A model generated the notes under the pieces. That model saw only the letters and a list, made by a program, of their open reading frames with translations. It was not told where the DNA came from and searched no databases. Made by a program: the position numbers and the translations under genes. A stretch of 64,000 nt of DNA from Escherichia coli (lineage in GTDB: Bacteria > Pseudomonadota > Gammaproteobacteria > Enterobacterales > Enterobacteriaceae): NCBI RefSeq assembly GCF_024700885.2, contig NZ_CP117016.1. One strand, written 5' to 3'. This document shows, one piece after another, positions 54,972-64,000 of this stretch (its first letter is position 1; every line of letters starts with the position of its first letter).

Positions 54972-55076
54972 ATGAGTGCAATAGAAAATTTCGATGCCCA
55001 TACGCCCATGATGCAGCAGTACCATTTTTCTATGGTTAACCTGTTGAAATTTAGCAATAAAGTGTTTGGTAAGTAG
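54972..55076 (+). pseudogene. mutS: mutS 5' fragment: first 17 codons of DNA mismatch repair protein MutS, then out-of-gene sequence and a stop
   Basis: ATGAGTGCAATAGAAAATTTCGATGCCCATACGCCCATGATGCAGCAGTA encodes MSAIENFDAHTPMMQQY (MutS N-terminus); after 55022 the sequence turns AT-rich and non-MutS (HFSMVNLLKFSNKVFGK-stop). Confidence 0.85.
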
Positions 55077-55365
55077 ACTCTGGTTTACTGATGGTATACA
55101 TAACATATAGTTATGTTAGCCAAGAACTCGAACTTAATGTGCCTAACTACAGAATGAAAAGTAACGTTGCGATACCGAAAAAATTTGGTGGCGTAAGGAA
55201 GGAATTGAAGTTCATTCATCTCCGTGAATATCTAAATCAATTTAATAACCAATTAAATAATTAGCTGGCTACAAATAACATTGATCTAATTCAATAATTT
55301 AGGATTATGTATTGGAGCTATTGAAAAAGTTGTGTTATAAAGGAAAAAAATCAAGGGAGATTAAA

Positions 55366-55635
55366 ATGTCTATCGATATCAATAAGTTAAAATCAAAATT
55401 AATTGAAGATTATAAATTCGCTGACGAGATTAGCGATGATGAAATCAATATAGTTTTAAGTGAAATACACAAAAAGGGTGCCTCAACACCAAAAGAAGTA
55501 GACGAAATTGTCTATACGGTATTAGAGGGTAAAAGGCATTATGCTTTCGAAAGTCTGGATACATCCAATACTACATCCCTTGCATTACAGTTAATTCAGG
55601 CGGCAAAGGTATATGCTCAAACACAAGGAAGATGA
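55366..55635 (+). CDS. hypothetical small acidic protein (89 aa), first gene of island cargo cluster
   Basis: SD agggaga 6 nt upstream of ATG 55366 (track ORF 55312..55635 is the same frame); no recognisable motif. Confidence 0.5.
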   Translation: MSIDINKLKSKLIEDYKFADEISDDEINIVLSEIHKKGASTPKEVDEIVYTVLEGKRHYAFESLDTSNTTSLALQLIQAAKVYAQTQGR

Positions 55636-56401
55636 AAGCATTCACATAGAGAGTAAAAAAAAACTTGATATGGAATTGCAGTTTTTAATAGATGAGATGC
55701 AAGCTGGGAAGGATAAAAACACTATTCTTCCACTGTTGAATAAACTGCAATTACAGTTTTCGATCTATGTTACTGATTTTGAAAATTTCATCGTTCGAGT
55801 TTCAGAAAATGGGTATTATCGTTCAAAAGGTGAAATAAAAGATGTTTTAATTAGCGTAGAAAATTTTTTAAATTCAAATGCAGTTGTTGCAGAAGCAATA
55901 AATACAGTTTCAAGCATATTCAATTTACCCCAATGTTATCAAGAAGGAAATTTCATAACAACTGCTCAAATAATATTAAGAACACATCAGAAAGAAAAAG
56001 CCGAGGAATTATCTCAAATTTATAAGGATAAAGGATTATCAACAAATGGCTTTGATAGTAAAGAAAAAATTTATTTGAACAGACACGGGTTTGATATGAC
56101 CAGATTTATTTCGTTTATATTAGGATTAATTTGTATACTTTATTTTTTATATGAATACAATATAGGCAATATAAACAATGGTATAAGTTGGTTTAATTAT
56201 AGATTGTTTGTTCCAACTGGATTAGGAGCAATAATATTTTCACTATTTCCGACAACCATGCAATTAAAATTTAGAGCAGGAGTGACAGCCACTGGAATTG
56301 TCGCATTTATTATATTTTTTTATACTGTCAATCCAGCAAAAGTTCCTGATTTTCAACTTCATAATATTGATAGCAATCAATCATCAGAAAAAAACAACTG
56401 A
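55613..56401 (+). CDS. hypothetical membrane-anchored protein (262 aa): about 170-aa soluble N-domain plus about 3 C-terminal TM helices
   Basis: ORF overlaps the upstream gene by 23 nt; hydrophobic segments FISFILGLICILYFLY, LGAIIFSLF, GIVAFIIFFYTV; alternative start ATG 55670. Confidence 0.6.
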   Translation: MLKHKEDESIHIESKKKLDMELQFLIDEMQAGKDKNTILPLLNKLQLQFSIYVTDFENFIVRVSENGYYRSKGEIKDVLISVENFLNSNAVVAEAINTVSSIFNLPQCYQEGNFITTAQIILRTHQKEKAEELSQIYKDKGLSTNGFDSKEKIYLNRHGFDMTRFISFILGLICILYFLYEYNIGNINNGISWFNYRLFVPTGLGAIIFSLFPTTMQLKFRAGVTATGIVAFIIFFYTVNPAKVPDFQLHNIDSNQSSEKNN

Positions 56402-56448
56402 TATCCAAGCGGATATCAGTTTAGATCTTAAAAGGAAAAAAATCCAAA

Positions 56449-56943
56449 GTGAAATTTATAGCATATGCGTTCTTGTCATTTACTATCGCACCAATAATTG
56501 GCATAATTATTGGAATTCCATTTGATAAATACTTACTCAAAAACTATCCAGTAGTTCTTTTCACAGTAATAATTATTTTCTCGTCCTTAGGAATCTACTC
56601 TCTTTACTTGTATAAAAAATCATACAAATATGTTAATGATGCTGTTTTAGCTATCTTTACTGGTTGGGTTGCATTGACATACTTACTCACGGGAGAAAAA
56701 ACAAGTGAGATAATCCCCTCGGAGAAACTAATTGAAACACACCCATTAATGTATTATCTAATAATATTAAAATTAACTATTGTTGCAAATGGGCTTTTGG
56801 CTAAGATATTTATTACATTAAACGAATTATATCATGCTCGTAAAGCTGAAAACAAAAGTGGGAAATATACTGATGTTTTAAAAATGACTATTTCCAGCAT
56901 TAAATCTTTTTTTAATTCTCAGAAGGACGGAGTCAAAAAGTAG
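56449..56943 (+). CDS. hypothetical integral membrane protein (164 aa, about 4 TM helices)
   Basis: GTG start; hydrophobic segments throughout; weak RBS. Confidence 0.5.
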   Translation: MKFIAYAFLSFTIAPIIGIIIGIPFDKYLLKNYPVVLFTVIIIFSSLGIYSLYLYKKSYKYVNDAVLAIFTGWVALTYLLTGEKTSEIIPSEKLIETHPLMYYLIILKLTIVANGLLAKIFITLNELYHARKAENKSGKYTDVLKMTISSIKSFFNSQKDGVKK

Positions 56944-57093
56944 AACAACCCCCATAGGAATTATTAATGCATTCATTGAAATAATAGCAGCAAAAACCAC
57001 TGCTAAATAATCATTCTTTGTGTCATAAAACAAAAACACAACAATATTTAAAAATAACACAAAGAGATAAAAAAGCATATCTTTAATATTCAT
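56878..57093 (-). CDS. hypothetical small hydrophobic protein (71 aa, 2 TM helices)
   Basis: Strong SD aaggagg 5 nt upstream of ATG (MNIKDMLFYLFVLFLNIVVFLF...); 3' end overlaps the convergent 56449..56943 ORF by 66 bp. Confidence 0.5.
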   Translation of the reverse strand: MNIKDMLFYLFVLFLNIVVFLFYDTKNDYLAVVFAAIISMNALIIPMGVVLLFDSVLLRIKKRFNAGNSHF

Positions 57094-57689
57094 AACAGCC
57101 TCCTTTTTTCTAATTTGATAATTTACAAATATCTTAATATAACGAAAAGTCAACTTACCCGATAAAAAATAGTTATTAGAACACCTTAAACTGATAATTA
57201 CATTAATAAATGCGAGTGATGAAATTTTTGAGTGAGATCATAAATTGTTGAGGCGTAAAGTTGTTGATATACCTGCTGTTCTGGTAAGTACTGCCATAAT
57301 AAAGGGCTGGTCTCCATCTGGTTTACTGCTTATATTTGTAGCTATGCTACTTAAGTGCTCTGTCGTTATATTGGGTATACATAATGCCCAAAAATCATTA
57401 TCGGATATTATTGAATCATCTAATAAGACGATGATTTTATTCACGAAAGATAATGCCAATGATGATGACGAAGCATTAACCAACCGTATTAATCAGATCA
57501 CAACCGAAGCTTTAACCAAACTCAGTAATAAAAAAGTTGATGCTGAAAAAACCTTGAATAAGCTCTAATGGTTGATTTTCATTGGTGTATCAGTCTGGTC
57601 TATGTTTGTTTTATATCAATTCAAAGATAACATAATCCCAGTTATTGAATTCGCCTATGAGCATATAAAGAGTTTCGTTACTTATTTAT

Positions 57690-57760
57690 TAAGCAAGGGC
57701 TAACTCATCGAAGCTCCGCTTCTTTGAGTTCCCTTGTTTTTCGCCCTTCGGTTGAAAAAG
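57690..57760. promoter_or_regulatory. candidate origin of transfer (oriT): nested inverted repeats upstream of mobC
   Basis: gcaagggctaactc ... gagttcccttg arms flanking the gaagc-tcc-gcttc hairpin, followed by cgcccttcgg; position matches oriT placement in mobC-mobA modules. Confidence 0.4.
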
Positions 57761-57784
57761 AAAGTCAAAGTCTAACCTAACTCA

Positions 57785-57812
57785 TTGACATGAATTGCAT
57801 TTCCACTATAAA
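57785..57812 (+). promoter_or_regulatory. sigma-70-like promoter for mobC-mobA
   Basis: -35 ttgaca (57785-57790), 16-nt spacer, -10 tataaa (57807-57812); strong SD aaaaaggag before mobC ATG. Confidence 0.5.
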
Positions 57813-57876
57813 TATATAATGTGTTGCAAAGGAATTGCTTACTTTAAAGCGAATAAAAATATAAAAAGGAGTTTAT

Positions 57877-58260
57877 ATGGGTAAAATAATAACATTGTCG
57901 TATACAAATAATTTTAAGCCTATTAGCGATAATAAATCTCAATCATTGCGAATACACTGTGTAAGTGTACGATTAAATAAAGAAGAGTTAGAGCTTCTCA
58001 ATGCAAGCCGTGGTGATAAACGCAAAGGTGAATGGCTTCGCATGGCATCACTTCAAAAGCTTCCTCCGACCATTCCTACAATCAATTTAGAAGTTTGGCA
58101 ATCATTGTCTGATATATCTCAAAAGCTAAACCGTCTAATAATCCACCTTGATACTAAAAGCAGTAATAGTGAACTGACGAAAACAGAGATCTTCGCTGTT
58201 AAAAAGCAGATTAAAGAGCTTCGCTCATGTCTTACAGGTTCTGATCCGTCCGTAAGGTAG
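57877..58260 (+). CDS. mobC: MobC-like relaxosome accessory protein
   Basis: 127 aa; segment VSVRLNKEELELLNASRGDKRKGEWLRMASL resembles the conserved MobC core (VRLxxEE...L...A); immediately upstream of the relaxase. Confidence 0.7.
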   Translation: MGKIITLSYTNNFKPISDNKSQSLRIHCVSVRLNKEELELLNASRGDKRKGEWLRMASLQKLPPTIPTINLEVWQSLSDISQKLNRLIIHLDTKSSNSELTKTEIFAVKKQIKELRSCLTGSDPSVR

Positions 58261-58268
58261 TTATTCGC

Positions 58269-59450
58269 ATGAAAGGAATGCAGAAGATCAAAAGGGGTAA
58301 GAGCTTCTCAGGTGTGGTTCTCTATGTGTTAAAGCCAGGCTCACACCATAGAACCGTTCCAGAAGTAATTGGTGGCAACATGACAGGTGATTGCTCACAA
58401 GAGTTAATCGACGAATTTAACCTTACGAAAGAGCTTCGCTCAGATGTGGCAAAACCTGTTTGGCACAATTCACTTCGATTACCCCAGGGAGAATCTCTTA
58501 CCAACGAACAATGGAAACGAATTGCTGACGATTACATGAAGCGAATGGGGTTCGGTGATACACACCTCCGTTGCTATGTTCTTCATGATGATCAGGCTGG
58601 TCAGCACATACACATTATTGCAAGTCGCATAGATCTCAATGGCGGGAAGCTCTACTTGGGTAGGAACGAAAACCTCATCAGCACCCGCATAATCAGTGAA
58701 CTCGAATTCGCTCATGGTCTGACAGTGACCAAGACAGCCTCTTCAATTGCACCAAAGCAACCGAAGCGGAAGAGAATCTCTCGCAACGAACAGATGCTAT
58801 CAGAACGAACTGGTGTTCCCTGCCCCAAGAAGTCCCTTCAACAGATCATAGATAAAAGTTTGGCAGATACACCTGACCTTTTAACTTTTATCAAGAGGCT
58901 GGAAGAAGCAGAAGTAGGCTGGACGGCGAATGTCGCAAGCACAGGTAAAATGAACGGGTTCTCTTTCGAATACACAGGAATAGCTTTCAAAGCTTCCCAG
59001 TTAGCCAAGAGCTATTCATGGGCAAATCTTCAAAAGCAGCTTAACTACAACCCGGATCACTTAGAAGCTCTGCGAAAGGATATACAGACCAAGGAAGTTC
59101 CTGCTCCTGTTCCTGTTCCTGTTCCTGTTCCTGTTCCTGTTCCTGTTCCTGTTCCTGCAGAACCGATAGCAAGAACGGCCGCCCAGATCGAAAGCATAAG
59201 TGAAAAAATTGCCGAACTGGAACTACGACTCAAAGAAGACAGAAGAAACGAAATCGTAGAAAAGATTCTTCAAAAGAATGCAGCCAAACAGCAAAAGCAT
59301 CTCAGGCTCACCGGCTGGATTCCCTTTTTACAACGGCTCATAGAGCTTCTCAGAAAATATGGAAGGAGCATCCTCCACAAGGTTCCTACAAACTTCTTAG
59401 AAGTCTATTCAACCCATCATCTGAAACCTACAAGAAAAATTCGTTTATAG
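58269..59450 (+). CDS. mobA: MobA/VirD2-type HUH relaxase (mobilisation nuclease)
   Basis: 393 aa; N-terminal Tyr region KSFSGVVLYVLK; three-His motif HDDQAGQHIHIIASRID; coiled-coil C-terminus. Confidence 0.85.
   Translation: MKGMQKIKRGKSFSGVVLYVLKPGSHHRTVPEVIGGNMTGDCSQELIDEFNLTKELRSDVAKPVWHNSLRLPQGESLTNEQWKRIADDYMKRMGFGDTHLRCYVLHDDQAGQHIHIIASRIDLNGGKLYLGRNENLISTRIISELEFAHGLTVTKTASSIAPKQPKRKRISRNEQMLSERTGVPCPKKSLQQIIDKSLADTPDLLTFIKRLEEAEVGWTANVASTGKMNGFSFEYTGIAFKASQLAKSYSWANLQKQLNYNPDHLEALRKDIQTKEVPAPVPVPVPVPVPVPVPVPAEPIARTAAQIESISEKIAELELRLKEDRRNEIVEKILQKNAAKQQKHLRLTGWIPFLQRLIELLRKYGRSILHKVPTNFLEVYSTHHLKPTRKIRL
59100..59159 (+). repeat. hexanucleotide tandem repeat: 8 perfect CCTGTT units (59106-59153) flanked by CCTGCT and CCTGCA
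   Basis: Encodes PAPVPVPVPVPVPVPVPVPA linker inside the relaxase. Confidence 0.95.
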
Positions 59451-59702
59451 ACAGCTAGTTATAAACACCTTTCGTAACATAACTTAATTACCTAGTGATA
59501 AATTTGTGTTTAGTCAAGAAAATATTGATCGTTATTACAGATCGATATCAATATTATGATAGCCTAAACCTATCGTAACTTAGACATCGATCGGTACAAG
59601 TGATTTTACTAAAGATAATTATTCATCGAGAATCCCTGAAAAGAGCCTGATGATTTTTAAGCAATAGCAGTATCAGGAACCGATTGTAAAAATGGAGTTA
59701 AT

Positions 59703-59981
59703 ATGAATAACGAAACCATTAAGTGTCCGTTCTGCTTCAAAGAGAGCCAGTTTGGTGTCCGTGTTTGTACCGGCTGTCATTCAACCATCAAATATGGCGA
59801 AGTTTCACCTTGGTTATCTTTACTAATAGGATTTATTTTATTAGCCATTGCTTACATCATACTTTATATAAGTCAAAGTTTTTTAGTAGCTCTCGTTATT
59901 CTTTTAACATTAATGATTTCTACAAGATTGTATATTCGTAAAAAATTTGCACACAGAGCAGTTTTCACTCACCAACATTAA
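59703..59981 (+). CDS. hypothetical zinc-ribbon membrane protein (92 aa)
   Basis: N-terminal CPFC...CTGC zinc-ribbon-like pair then two TM helices; SD tggag before ATG. Confidence 0.55.
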   Translation: MNNETIKCPFCFKESQFGVRVCTGCHSTIKYGEVSPWLSLLIGFILLAIAYIILYISQSFLVALVILLTLMISTRLYIRKKFAHRAVFTHQH

Positions 59982-59999
59982 GAACAAAAGGGATTTAAC

Positions 60000-60314
60000 A
60001 TGAAAGCATATGCTATGCTAACAATCATTCTTTCTACTTTTCTATTAACTGCATGTAATAGTGAACCAAGTCAAGATGATATCTACAATGCATTCAAAAG
60101 TGTTGTAGATAAAACCAATGCCAGCATGAAAGCTTTTGATTCAAGAGTGTCAGAAAAAGACCTTTTAAAAATCGATTATGTAAAAAAAGTAAGCTGTTCG
60201 GAAGAAGCAAACAATGTTTACAACTGCATTGTCGATGCTTCTATTAGCAACAATAAACAGACGAAACCAATTAAATTAGTTAAAGCTGATGGTGTCTGGA
60301 AAGAAGTTCAGTAG
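60000..60314 (+). CDS. hypothetical lipoprotein (104 aa)
   Basis: Signal peptide with lipobox LLTAC (MKAYAMLTIILSTFLLTACNSE); SD aaggga; terminator follows. Confidence 0.6.
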   Translation: MKAYAMLTIILSTFLLTACNSEPSQDDIYNAFKSVVDKTNASMKAFDSRVSEKDLLKIDYVKKVSCSEEANNVYNCIVDASISNNKQTKPIKLVKADGVWKEVQ

Positions 60315-60337
60315 TAGCCTATATCAAGAAGTCTCTT

Positions 60338-60362
60338 TTAGCCCCTGCACAGGGGCTTTTTA
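60338..60362 (+). terminator. rho-independent terminator after the lipoprotein gene
   Basis: agcccctg-caca-ggggct hairpin followed by ttttta. Confidence 0.7.
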
Positions 60363-60366
60363 TTGC

Positions 60367-60801
60367 CTATAACCTGACGGCTCTTACGCGAACTTCATGG
60401 GTTAACTCTTTCTCGATTACTTTCATTTCATATTGTGCTCTGACAGTAGCATAGATTTCTTCTGCCATTTCTTGATTGCTATCGATATAGTTAACGAGAG
60501 AGTTTAGCTCCCTGATAACAGCTTCCTTATTGTTTAATCGTTGTAGTAGATTGCTTGTTAGGCTTTTGTATACAGAGCTAAACATTGCCATGACATTGTC
60601 TATGTTACGATTTGATTTGGAATAAATTTTTTTAGGATAGAAATATTTTAAATGGTATCCCACAAAAATTAAGTAAAGCTGATATGAAAAACTTTTATCA
60701 TGTGGCTGATATCGTTTTGATATGTATTTATCTACAATGATAACAAGCTGTTCTTCCAGTGTCATCACTGAATTATAATTGGTTTTGTTCATAAGTTGCA
60801 T
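60367..60801 (-). CDS. hypothetical protein (144 aa), last gene of recombinase-strand cluster
   Basis: ORF with ATG; no recognisable motif. Confidence 0.5.
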   Translation of the reverse strand: MQLMNKTNYNSVMTLEEQLVIIVDKYISKRYQPHDKSFSYQLYLIFVGYHLKYFYPKKIYSKSNRNIDNVMAMFSSVYKSLTSNLLQRLNNKEAVIRELNSLVNYIDSNQEMAEEIYATVRAQYEMKVIEKELTHEVRVRAVRL

Positions 60802-60894
60802 CCTTGCAAAATTTGATTTTGTCTTCCTGACAATACATATATAATTACCACATATTTAAAAAACATCAATAGACAAAACCTATTGATGTCAAAA

Positions 60895-61278
60895 TTATTT
60901 TTTGTTTTTGGGAAAAATTTGATCTTCTCTAATACATTTACCATATGCAACCATTTGAAGATCTCTAACCATAAGTAGAAGCCTGTTATTTTCACTAACT
61001 AACCTCGAATTTTCTGTTTCTAATTTACTGATTTTATTCGAAGCATAGGCAAGACTTTGAGGACTTTTAATATGCTTAACAGTTTCACCTTTAGTTCTCT
61101 TTTTCTGCTGATATGCATAAGCTATTACTGTATGTCTTGAAAGAGCCTGTCTCGTTGGTTTTTTACCGAAATGATCCTCTACGGAATCACAAAGACTGAC
61201 CCAAGTTAAATCGCCTTCCCAGCCATTTATTTTATCGAGAACGAATTCAATATCTTCCTTGTTAAACTTTTTACTCAT
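60895..61278 (-). CDS. small coiled-coil protein downstream of the recombinases (TnpC-like position)
   Basis: Start at MSKKFNKEDIEF (track ORF starts 10 codons earlier); overlaps the upstream recombinase gene; C-terminal heptad-like region KISKLETENSRLVSENNRLLLMVRDLQ. Confidence 0.55.
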   Translation of the reverse strand: MSKKFNKEDIEFVLDKINGWEGDLTWVSLCDSVEDHFGKKPTRQALSRHTVIAYAYQQKKRTKGETVKHIKSPQSLAYASNKISKLETENSRLVSENNRLLLMVRDLQMVAYGKCIREDQIFPKNKK

Positions 61279-62917
61279 TATGTTCTCCTCTAAGATAATA
61301 ACTAACAATATGATTTATAATTTTACTAACTTCTTGGATTTCCTTTTCAACATAATTCGCTTTCTGTGAATTATATTGGCTTCTGTATAAATTATTCTTT
61401 TCTTCAAGCGTTTGTAAATGGTCTTTAATTTTGCAAATAATATCATCCTTACTCCCTCCACCTAAATCAGAAATCATTTCATCAGCAAATAATACTCTTC
61501 GTTCGTTTTGTCGCAACTCCTCCCAAGTTCGGTTATCATACACATTATTTTGTTCAACATTTTTCCTCCCTGACCAAAAAGCTATTTCTATATCAGAGAG
61601 CATAGCTCTTTGAGCAAGAGTGTTTAAAAGATGTCTTGGCTGATGACTACTAAAAATCTCTTTCATACCATTGGGTTGTAATGTTTTATGTCGTTGAAAA
61701 AAATTTAAGGTAGTTTCTTTTTCTGACCTTTTTTTAAAATCAGCAATAAACATCTTTTTATTTGCGGGTAAGACACAGAATAAATCAATTCCTTTCTTTA
61801 AATGTAATTGATCTTTATTTAGGATTAACAATCTATTACTAAGGTTTATAGATTTTGAAAATTCATCCCAAGATTTTGTTTTATCGCTATAATTAAAAAC
61901 TTCATTCCAAAATTCTTTTGCACTAAGAATCCCACTCTCTACCCTCATTAATATATTTTTAGTTTTAACATTGAAGCAGTCCATACAGTTTAGATTTAAA
62001 AGCTTATACAACTTTGTATGAAAATATCGTCCATTCTCATCAGTCTCTAAACTCTTATAAAACTCCAATTCTCCTTTTTCTCGTAGGGTAGCTATGCACC
62101 TTGCCGTTTGTGATAATACCCTTAATCTTTTAATGGCTAATTTTGCTATTGAATGCATATTCCTTGGAATCCACTTTATACTTTCACCATAGCCTTTTGC
62201 ACTATGATAACGAATGCCATAGGAGCCTTTCCCCTCTATGTCGTTCCCTTCAACTTCACAATCCACCTCAAGACTCAGGACTTCTGATATTCGTGTTGGA
62301 GCACAAAGAAGCAGTGCGATGATAGATGTTGTAAATATATCTCTTTGGCTTTTATCATTAGAACTAAAAACCCTACCAACAAGATCTATGACTTCCTCTT
62401 CTGGTAACTTATTTTTAATTTCTTTTTGCCCTATAAGATCTCTTACAGCTTTATTTCTAATTATTCTAAGCCTGGAGTTAAACTTACTTAATTTTGGATT
62501 TATTATGTTATTTATAGCTAACACTTCTAAAATATTCTTTAATGCCTTTTCAATAGCCCCCGCACGACTATTAGAATATTTCTTTTCTACTTGGAATAAA
62601 ATGTTGTTGATAACCTCAGAATTAATATTAACAATATGTGGTTCTACATTCAAAGTGAAGAATGAACTTTCCATAATTTTTATGACCGCCAAATAAAGTA
62701 ATGATTTACTGAGATTAGGGAAACACTCTCTATATATAATAACCTTTGATAATTGTTGAAAATGCGCTCCCATGTCTTTATCTTTTTTTATATGATTGTT
62801 ATTTTTAAATGAAACCCCTCTACCCCATGACAAATCATCCCAATTTATAATATTTTCTTTTTTTGCCTGTATCCTTACTTCATTAGCTAAAACATCATAA
62901 TTATTATAATGACTCAT
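61271..62917 (-). CDS. tyrosine recombinase, large (548 aa; Tn554 TnpB-like size and position)
   Basis: Catalytic region HQPRHLLNTLAQRAMLSDIEIAFWSGRKNVEQNNVYDNR (HxxR ... Y); box I candidate PTRISEVLSL; 14-nt overlap with upstream recombinase. Confidence 0.8.
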   Translation of the reverse strand: MSHYNNYDVLANEVRIQAKKENIINWDDLSWGRGVSFKNNNHIKKDKDMGAHFQQLSKVIIYRECFPNLSKSLLYLAVIKIMESSFFTLNVEPHIVNINSEVINNILFQVEKKYSNSRAGAIEKALKNILEVLAINNIINPKLSKFNSRLRIIRNKAVRDLIGQKEIKNKLPEEEVIDLVGRVFSSNDKSQRDIFTTSIIALLLCAPTRISEVLSLEVDCEVEGNDIEGKGSYGIRYHSAKGYGESIKWIPRNMHSIAKLAIKRLRVLSQTARCIATLREKGELEFYKSLETDENGRYFHTKLYKLLNLNCMDCFNVKTKNILMRVESGILSAKEFWNEVFNYSDKTKSWDEFSKSINLSNRLLILNKDQLHLKKGIDLFCVLPANKKMFIADFKKRSEKETTLNFFQRHKTLQPNGMKEIFSSHQPRHLLNTLAQRAMLSDIEIAFWSGRKNVEQNNVYDNRTWEELRQNERRVLFADEMISDLGGGSKDDIICKIKDHLQTLEEKNNLYRSQYNSQKANYVEKEIQEVSKIINHIVSYYLRGEHNE

Positions 62918-63881
62918 TATTCATGCCCTCCTTGTTGAGCAATTCGATTATTTTATTTATTTTACATTCTAACATTGTGAATAAGTCCGTTAGGATTTCA
63001 AAGTCTGCTTGCTTCGTATAATCTGCTATTAATACTCCAGTAAGCTTTTTTATGATTATCAAATCGTCAACCAATCTAAGGGTAATGTCGTCACTGTTTT
63101 TTAAAAATGAGGAAATATAAGGGCTTACTAACTCATTTATTGCCTGATCTATTCTGAATGAAAACTCTTCATTGTTTTTTGCATACGACAATACTGATTT
63201 CAAATTGCTATGATCTAAAGCTTTTGCTATCGTACCTAATCCATAACCTTTAAGTGCAAGCCTTGTGGCTAATGTAACCCTAAGTTGCCGAGAGTTAATC
63301 TTTTTATTTTTATCTTTACTTACCCTTTGGCAAATGGCCTGAACCCTACCGGTTATCCTCTTAGAACTCATATGCAAATTGAAGAAGTTATTTTCATATA
63401 ATTTATCAAGTTTGTAAGTCGAGTTAAAAAAACAAGGATCAATAAAGAGGGGTAAATTGTTTAATTCATCTTCACTTAATATATCGCCTACCTCACCCTG
63501 CACAAAAACCTTAACTACTGATTTAAGCTCTGATAGTGAATTGAACAAATTATCCCCTATACGCAATTCGGAAAAATCAGTTCTGAAACTATCTCCTTGT
63601 TTTAATCTGGGTATGTTTAAAAAATTACCATTTTCTTTGATATAAAGATCCTTCCTTTTTAATTGAGCGATCTGCATTGGTCTTCGCCCCGAATATATCA
63701 TCAGCATGACTAAAAGGTAGTCATTCATAGTCATATTTCCATCATTGTATTCCTTTGTCATGCCCCCAATTAGGTTCTTCAGTTCGTATTCAGATAATGG
63801 TCTTAAAGACTCTTTTCGCTCAATATATGCAGTTGTCTTGTTGGGTTTAGTTACTTTCCATTTTAAAATCAAATCCAGCAT
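62904..63881 (-). CDS. tyrosine recombinase, small (325 aa; Tn554 TnpA-like size and position)
   Basis: Box I YSGRRPMQIAQLKRKDL; box II/Tyr region LRVTLATRLALKGYGLGTIAKALDHSNLKSVLSYAKN. Confidence 0.8.
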   Translation of the reverse strand: MLDLILKWKVTKPNKTTAYIERKESLRPLSEYELKNLIGGMTKEYNDGNMTMNDYLLVMLMIYSGRRPMQIAQLKRKDLYIKENGNFLNIPRLKQGDSFRTDFSELRIGDNLFNSLSELKSVVKVFVQGEVGDILSEDELNNLPLFIDPCFFNSTYKLDKLYENNFFNLHMSSKRITGRVQAICQRVSKDKNKKINSRQLRVTLATRLALKGYGLGTIAKALDHSNLKSVLSYAKNNEEFSFRIDQAINELVSPYISSFLKNSDDITLRLVDDLIIIKKLTGVLIADYTKQADFEILTDLFTMLECKINKIIELLNKEGMNNESL

Positions 63882-64000
63882 TTCTTGATCTATGAATTCA
63901 TTATTTAACTCATAATGTTTTATTATAAAATACTTTAAACTTTCAACATGTGTATAGCTTATTTTATAATATGCATTGTAAAATCTATTTAGTAATCCAT

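Follow-up and report, generated by a model that had tools for sequence, protein, structure and literature searches.

The stretch of DNA analyzed here, called the window throughout, covers 64 kb of an Escherichia coli chromosome, and all coordinates are positions within it unless a compared locus or contig (L-numbers) is named; proteins are denoted by P-numbers. On its plus strand, at 58269..59450, lies a gene for a 393-residue MobA/VirD2-like HUH nuclease, recognized by Pfam, by alignment, and by the annotation of an identical gene. From its neighborhood and distribution, we read it as the relaxase of an integrative mobilizable island carried on the chromosome in E. coli and other Enterobacterales. 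The gene contains a hexanucleotide microsatellite of ten units (59100..59159, plus strand), in which a perfect core of eight CCTGTT hexamers (59106..59153, plus strand) is bounded by the variants CCTGCT (59100–59105) and CCTGCA (59154–59159). The array is in frame, with position 59100 being the first base of codon 278 of the open reading frame (ORF), and the translation runs ...KEV-PA-(PV)8-PA-EPIAR..., so that the hexamers encode PA(PV)8PA at residues 278–297, with the perfect core giving (Pro-Val)x8. Tandem Repeats Finder reported the array at 59097–59157, with a period of 6, 10.2 copies, 96% matches, and a score of 115, while every other array it found in the 64-kb window had at most 2.7 copies. 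A three-unit 18-mer probe, allowing up to one mismatch, gave seven overlapping matches in the window, every one inside the array, and no matches in 100 dinucleotide-preserving shuffles of the sequence. The preliminary description of this stretch had counted eight perfect hexamers, or ten with the flanking variants, and had considered such a run rare by chance; direct reading and these searches agree with it on both counts.

That the gene product is a relaxase, as had also been proposed, is confirmed by several lines of evidence. RefSeq labels the identical gene “relaxase/mobilization nuclease domain-containing protein” (WP_220527501.1), and residues 19–151 match the Pfam family PF03432 over its full profile (E 5.1e-27, 95.2 bits against a cut-off of 24.6). 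The metal-site motif HxDx5HxH can be read in the translation as H106-D-D-Q-A-G-Q-H113-I-H115. Across an alignment of 114 sequences, Y19 and H115 never vary, while conservation of H106 and H113 reaches at least 90%; Y19 is the catalytic tyrosine, and the H106-x6-H113-x-H115 series supplies the metal-binding histidines. Residues 6–256 are 42–50% identical by tblastn to the MobA/TraI-type (MOBP/MOBQ) relaxases of small mobilizable plasmids that bear MobC, for example IncQ-2-like or qnrS2 plasmids such as pGNB2 (DQ460733) and 7.6-kb Aeromonas/Salmonella plasmids. The score against NCBIfam NF041893, the equivalog for IncP-type TraI/MobA(P), was 66.8 bits with a cut-off of 250; the protein is related to that family but falls outside the equivalog. 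NCBIfam models of Bacteroides MobB gave weak matches under their cut-offs. A relaxase fold is predicted as well. The AlphaFold2 model has a mean predicted local distance difference test score (pLDDT) of 83.6, with residues 1–274 mostly above 90, and the best Foldseek matches in the PDB are MobA of R1162 (2ns6, probability 1.00, E 1.6e-3) and MobM (4lvm, probability 1.00), both relaxases, with E-values that are modest.

The position of the array within the protein is informative. The N-terminal relaxase domain, residues 1–274 (58269..59090, plus strand), is delimited by Pfam, alignment, the extent of homology, AlphaFold, and Foldseek. Among the best 150 representatives of 50% clusters, drawn from a library of 1.84 billion proteins and also used as the AlphaFold2 input alignment, most align only from residue 1 to about 257–275 and then continue into unrelated extensions or low-complexity linkers; for nearly all distant homologues, the alignment stops at about residue 265. 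In the model, residues 278–303 fall below a pLDDT of 50 and are devoid of secondary structure. They lead into a C-terminal module of residues 298–393 (59160..59447, plus strand), for which AlphaFold2 predicts one long helix at residues 308–363 (59190–59357, plus strand; pLDDT ~77), a short helix at 376–382, and a disordered, poorly predicted basic tail. The long helix carries the motif W-I/L-P-F/Y...L..L...G.S-I/L-L, which is kept even in relatives only 50–60% identical that have long non-repetitive linkers where the repeat would stand. On homology and predicted structure, then, the array sits where the nuclease domain meets a small helical module at the C-terminus, and PA(PV)8PA has the character of a Pro-X spacer between the domain of residues 1–274 and the helix of residues 308–363. 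The preliminary description had placed the array between an N-terminal nuclease domain and a C-terminal coiled coil. The first boundary agrees with both the homology and the model; for the coiled coil, a long helix is indeed predicted, but only short heptad-like stretches could be found on reading its sequence.

Copies of the same island at the same site, between ygbA and mutS, show how the array changes. There are eight PV units in the window and L001, five in an E. coli draft genome (L002), and four in two metagenome contigs (L003 and L004). Over positions 55,000–64,000, the window differs from L002 by one single-nucleotide polymorphism (SNP), one 1-bp indel, and an 18-bp gap in the array, and from L004 by one SNP and a 24-bp gap in the array. 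Thus, arrays of 4, 5, or 8 PV units occur in DNA that differs by about one SNP per 9 kb, and the earlier proposal that the linker would vary by whole units without breaking the frame has held up. Copy number is not invariant among more distant relatives of the element either. We read 23 arrays at the DNA level, 18 of them from complete E. coli genomes with the window's own (L001) included, and counted units only where DNA was obtained; gene length tracks copy number solely within one allele group and misleads across alleles, where other indels precede the linker. The arrays of the 18 complete genomes span 5–35 units. By length, single arrays had 5, 7, 8, 11, 12, 21, or 35 units, two each had 9, 14, or 19, and three each had 10 or 15. 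The longest (L014:1446–1655, from E. coli 401656) has 35 units over 210 bp and encodes a 439-residue relaxase. The same allele has only 8 units in EcPF5 (L015), a difference of 27 units with no mismatch in 2.1 kb, and 19 units, interrupted by one CCTGCG, in MS15046 (L021). Likewise, L017 (19 units) and L018 (10 units) are separated by 3 mismatches, and genes at least 99.3% identical have 5, 5, 10, 11, and 19 units.

Most of these arrays are also very homogeneous. Sixteen of the 18 from complete genomes consist purely of (CCTGCT)n or (CCTGTT)n and close with CCTGCA or CCTGTA, and a pure run of one unit with a terminal variant was seen in 21 of all 23, the exceptions being L013 and L021; this purity indicates rapid turnover. 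The frame is kept in 22 of the 23. The lone disruption, in E. coli 2020CK-00188 (L013:1595–1700), is a 1-base insertion and not a unit change: the array is (CCTGCT)x15 with one extra C, and the annotation treats the gene as a frameshifted pseudogene. Either the gene is truly inactivated or the added C is a sequencing error in a homopolymer. At the protein level, the 120 closest protein clusters stem from E. coli, Klebsiella, Salmonella, Citrobacter, Enterobacter, Raoultella, and Lelliottia; in 113 of them, three or more units in a (PA)n or (PV)n run occupy the array site, and the other seven clusters keep one or two units. Relaxase proteins derived from short reads go down to a single unit, giving a span of 1–35 units for the family. 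Some arrays among the closest clusters are compound, for example PVPVPAPAPAPA. A PV unit differs from a PA unit by one C/T transition, and the PV block in the window, which has PA units on either side, matches the outcome expected had a mutated unit expanded within a PA array. The array is pure beyond chance and differs by whole units between near-identical sequences, as a microsatellite or variable-number tandem repeat (VNTR) does. It is by far the fastest-changing site of the element, with change that far outpaces point substitution.

These properties bear out the suggestion of a useful polymorphic marker, although the array is a frequent breakpoint in draft assemblies across Enterobacterales. 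Many “relaxase, partial” entries in the databases are halves of this gene cut at the array, and N-terminal fragments of 273–287 residues and C-terminal fragments of about 95–103 residues share 90% clusters. Partial proteins of these kinds occur in the clusters of P0025, P0088, and P0299–P0396. When the C-terminal module was used to retrieve relatives, about 85 of 98 clusters began at the end of the array or within a few residues of it. The same is seen in the contigs themselves: four independent Klebsiella-type contigs (L005–L008) end in “...CTT CCTGTT CCTG”, further breaks lie at the contig starts L149:1–20 and L150:1–20, and one contig of the window's own element begins at the array's last base. 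Such breaks fit arrays that either exceed the assembler k-mer or are mixed in length. In Logan contigs, where k-mers are short, breaks at the array are to be expected.

The interpretation that we favor, with a probability of about 0.8, is that the array is an in-frame hexanucleotide microsatellite encoding a length-tolerant Pro-X spacer between the HUH relaxase domain and a helical module of ~96 residues. Slipped-strand mispairing in replication would add and remove whole units; alternatively, arrays would recombine unequally with one another. In E. coli, loops of six bases are recognized poorly by MutS-dependent repair. The (Pro-Val/Ala)n stretch may form an extended, non-globular, polyproline-II-like spacer with a rise of ~3 Å per residue, which would amount to ~60 Å for the 20 residues here and to ~30–220 Å over 5–35 units. 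Through such a spacer, the nuclease domain bound at oriT would be tethered to the partner of the C-terminal module. Selection would keep a Pro-X spacer at this site and tolerate a very wide range of lengths, a tolerance suggested by the intact ORFs over 1–35 units, and the copy number of a single isolate (8 PV units here) would largely reflect mutation and drift. Several considerations weigh against this account. The rate of slippage, the choice of slippage over unequal recombination, and the conformation of the spacer are all inferred, and low AlphaFold confidence means “not a folded domain” and not “polyproline-II rod”. “Tether” is used as a structural term only, the island is called mobilizable from its gene content, and neutral length tolerance is assumed from intact ORFs only. 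In addition, short-read assemblies are biased toward short arrays, and the true length distribution is uncertain.

Two other explanations would make the array something other than a protein spacer, and we consider both highly improbable. One is that it is a collapsed or mis-called repeat. Draft assemblies, including one contig of the window's own element, often end in or at the array, and one genome has the 1-base insertion in it that may be a sequencing error. However, the 60-bp array is identical in two independent genomes, CFSAN061761 and MLI114, both at the RefSeq “complete genome” level and both 100% identical to the window over 1701 bp (57800–59500), and copy numbers in other assemblies differ always by whole units in otherwise identical DNA. 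An array of 60 bp is also shorter than typical sequencing reads. The preliminary description had raised the concern of assembly collapse, which these comparisons make unlikely. The other explanation is a DNA-level element, such as iterons, a piece of the transfer origin (oriT), or a signal on the other strand, that only happens to overlap the coding sequence. Ten direct hexamers would suit such an element, as oriT and iteron regions are often repetitive, but a 56%-identical homologue, located on a short Salmonella contig, carries (GTGCCA)x11 in the array's place and so encodes (Val-Pro)11 with other codons and in another phase. The same peptide is thus written in different codons, which places the constraint at the protein level rather than on a DNA motif. 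Moreover, PA and PV versions interchange, and the likely oriT region is upstream of the accessory gene that precedes the relaxase. The hexamer is also not specific to this relaxase family. A scan of genome contigs for (CCTGYT)x5 found at least 120 loci in unrelated bacteria (Burkholderiales, Streptomyces, Pseudomonas, and others) with 5–18 units, and tblastn detected no copy of this relaxase near the arrays among these loci listed; the scan did not inform the comparison of copy numbers. All six loci that were translated in the CCTGYT frame contain stop codons, and their arrays may be out of frame or intergenic. These comparisons suggest that the Pro-X spacer is conserved as protein, while the array of each lineage is a young, homogenized microsatellite.

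The remaining alternatives accept the spacer but assign a further function to the repeat. One is that it is mainly a patch of homology for swapping N-terminal domains and C-terminal modules between different elements, and some of the data fit this: identities of the N part (residues 1–260) and the C part (residues 300–393) correlate at only r=0.24 across 121 proteins, several pairs turn from divergent to identical exactly at the repeat, and 705 of 1270 significant pairwise best breakpoints fall at residues 240–284, with 112 exactly across the repeat. However, protein pairs are not independent, and adjusted mutual information between neighboring 15-residue segments is mostly below 0.3 throughout the protein and not lower but 0.37 across the repeat. 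Clear breakpoints also occur well away from the repeat, such as one near residue 339 in the comparison of the window with P0005. A role as a special recombination hotspot was ruled out, as the whole gene is mosaic and the association of segments across the repeat is unexceptional, and we regard a recombination junction as the main role of the repeat as distinctly improbable. We are less dismissive of linker length as a selected, adjustable setting of mobilization efficiency, or of the match to a helper system, in the manner of a graded contingency locus, although this too is unlikely. Pure, highly mutable arrays are kept in many lineages and have been re-created with other codons in the distant homologue, unit numbers vary from 1 to 35 while the ORF stays intact, and the element would depend on helpers, with no conjugation genes seen in the island. 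However, no link of length with host, allele, or cargo was noticed, none having been formally sought, the non-repetitive linkers of very different lengths in distant relatives fit plain tolerance equally well, and six-base units, a multiple of three, cannot switch the gene on and off. In a more specific form of this idea, which we find quite unlikely, length would act as a dial: relaxase variants holding the C-terminal module 30–220 Å away would keep subpopulations matched to whichever helper coupling protein is available.

A length-tolerant spacer encoded by a microsatellite can be compared with several known systems. The MobA/TraI-type relaxases of small mobilizable plasmids share with this protein the catalytic tyrosine, the HxDx(5)HxH motif, the MobA R1162 fold, and a small gene directly upstream. 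However, the present gene is chromosomal, and it has the Pro-X microsatellite and the 96-residue helical module where the plasmid enzymes have a C-terminal primase or a long extension. Spacers of alternating proline are found in myosin essential light chain 1, as (Ala-Pro)n, in TonB, as (Glu-Pro)n(Lys-Pro)n, in the Ala/Pro-rich inter-domain linkers of the E2 chains of 2-oxo-acid dehydrogenases, and in polyketide and fatty acid synthases (PKS/FAS). They behave as extended, fairly stiff spacers. Like them, the stretch described here alternates proline with a small or hydrophobic residue over 10–70 residues, lies beside folded modules, and is unfolded in prediction. When the relaxase was searched against PDB sequences, only weak, low-complexity matches to the repeat were returned (E 0.2–1), and the sole sequences matching the stretch were the myosin essential light chain and PKS/FAS linkers. 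Unlike those spacers, this one is a pure hexanucleotide microsatellite with a length that differs between near-identical strains. In this respect, it resembles the 6-bp loci used for multiple-locus VNTR analysis (MLVA) in E. coli and Salmonella, as well as contingency loci, with which it shares perfect units, whole-unit polymorphism, presumed slippage, and usefulness in typing. It differs in that there is no on/off phase switch, as the 6-bp unit keeps the frame, and in that the array is on an accessory mobilizable island and hence in only ~2% of complete E. coli genomes. In the literature searched, no description of a Pro-Ala/Pro-Val repeat or VNTR in a relaxase was found. In-frame, repeat-encoded proline-rich linkers and their slippage are already well known, and the array reveals no new mechanism.

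An ORF of 127 codons (57877..58260, plus strand) ends 8 bp upstream of the relaxase and is a candidate MobC/NikA-like accessory protein. Its sole direct match is to a NikA-like Pfam family and is weak (E 0.13), and Pfam and NCBIfam profile searches gave no support for a MobC assignment. From its position, and by analogy with the MobC genes that adjoin the homologous plasmid relaxases, it is probably a relaxosome accessory protein. Upstream of it, long imperfect nested inverted repeats in the intergenic region (57691..57739, no strand assigned) are a candidate oriT hairpin. The guanine-plus-cytosine (GC) content drops from ~52% to 30–40% from ~54 kb on in the window, and the low-GC island extends between ygbA and mutS (window ~54900–64000; L001:16900–35700). 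It contains the small ORF followed by the relaxase, small hypothetical genes, and a run of overlapping recombinase genes. Matches were found in 128 of 5426 complete E. coli genomes (~2%), and all 134 places that matched are chromosomal. No near-identical plasmid was found in PLSDB; the 3.6-kb record OX345050, listed as a “plasmid”, is a linear contig of short length and probably no plasmid.

At the right end of the island, the genes lie on the minus strand and overlap (window 60895–64000; L002:12609–17261). They comprise a small ORF (60895–61308), a 548-codon ORF with no family match (61271–62917), and an integrase gene from 62904 onward that is cut by the window end and encodes 456 residues in L002; a third recombinase lies outside the window. 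Two of the right-end genes match the Pfam family Phage_integrase, whereas the 548-residue product showed no similarity to its neighbor (BLASTP E 0.037). In CFSAN061761, this gene is interrupted by IS1A. The island end thus has consecutive genes for two tyrosine recombinases confirmed by Pfam, for a large protein lacking annotation, and for a small one, with cargo behind them. The arrangement is reminiscent of GInt islands (Tn6571 family) and other recombinase-trio elements, which have an operon of three tyrosine recombinases and a small protein at one end. The likeness is one of gene layout; NCBIfam matches are under cut-off. The ginABCD layout of GInts has been described in a study that reports no known transfer route and mentions no relaxase (PMC5385486), and GInt-type islands have been reported to carry defense systems in E. 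coli hotspots (PMC10121019). The present island carries a relaxase module, unlike the GInts that have been described.

Beyond the window, the island goes on with transfer RNA (tRNA) genes for tRNA-Asp and tRNA-Val and with another tyrosine recombinase adjoining mutS, and the ygbA-mutS region may hold two islands in tandem. The same region has a gene pair for a UvrD-helicase and an ATP-dependent (OLD/TOPRIM) nuclease, which we take to resemble the Gabija defense system. Related relaxase modules elsewhere (L010–L013 and L005–L008) adjoin, upstream of the accessory gene, varied cargo of an antiphage type, including a retron Ec48 effector, a TIR-domain protein, and an HNH endonuclease, as well as DUF4760 and a set comprising PP2C, two kinases, a methyltransferase, and an AAA ATPase. 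The Klebsiella-type element has a single P4-like integrase and not the recombinase trio. The relaxase family is itself strongly mosaic (58269–59450 compared with P0001–P0120), with short segments, above all residues 255–277, 298–312, and 339–393, behaving as discrete cassettes that are recombined in numerous ways among Enterobacterales. Far from the island, at 15337–16120, the window contains four tRNA-Arg(ACG) genes and one tRNA-Ser(GCT) gene with a tandem period of 178 bp, an ordinary E. coli tRNA operon; a further tRNA-Arg(TCG), which ARAGORN places in overlap with it on the other strand, is probably spurious.

For those who work with these genomes, the array is a highly discriminating marker for mobilizable islands that are widespread in Enterobacterales, many of them with antiphage cargo. 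It is also a recurrent source of broken contigs and of “partial relaxase” annotations in draft genomes. For the relaxases themselves, the family offers a natural allelic series of 1–35 Pro-X units, in proteins that are the same otherwise, in which the spacing between the nuclease and the C-terminal module can be related to mobilization by helper plasmids. If spacer length did act as a dial, the array would be a graded, non-frameshifting contingency locus governing horizontal transfer.

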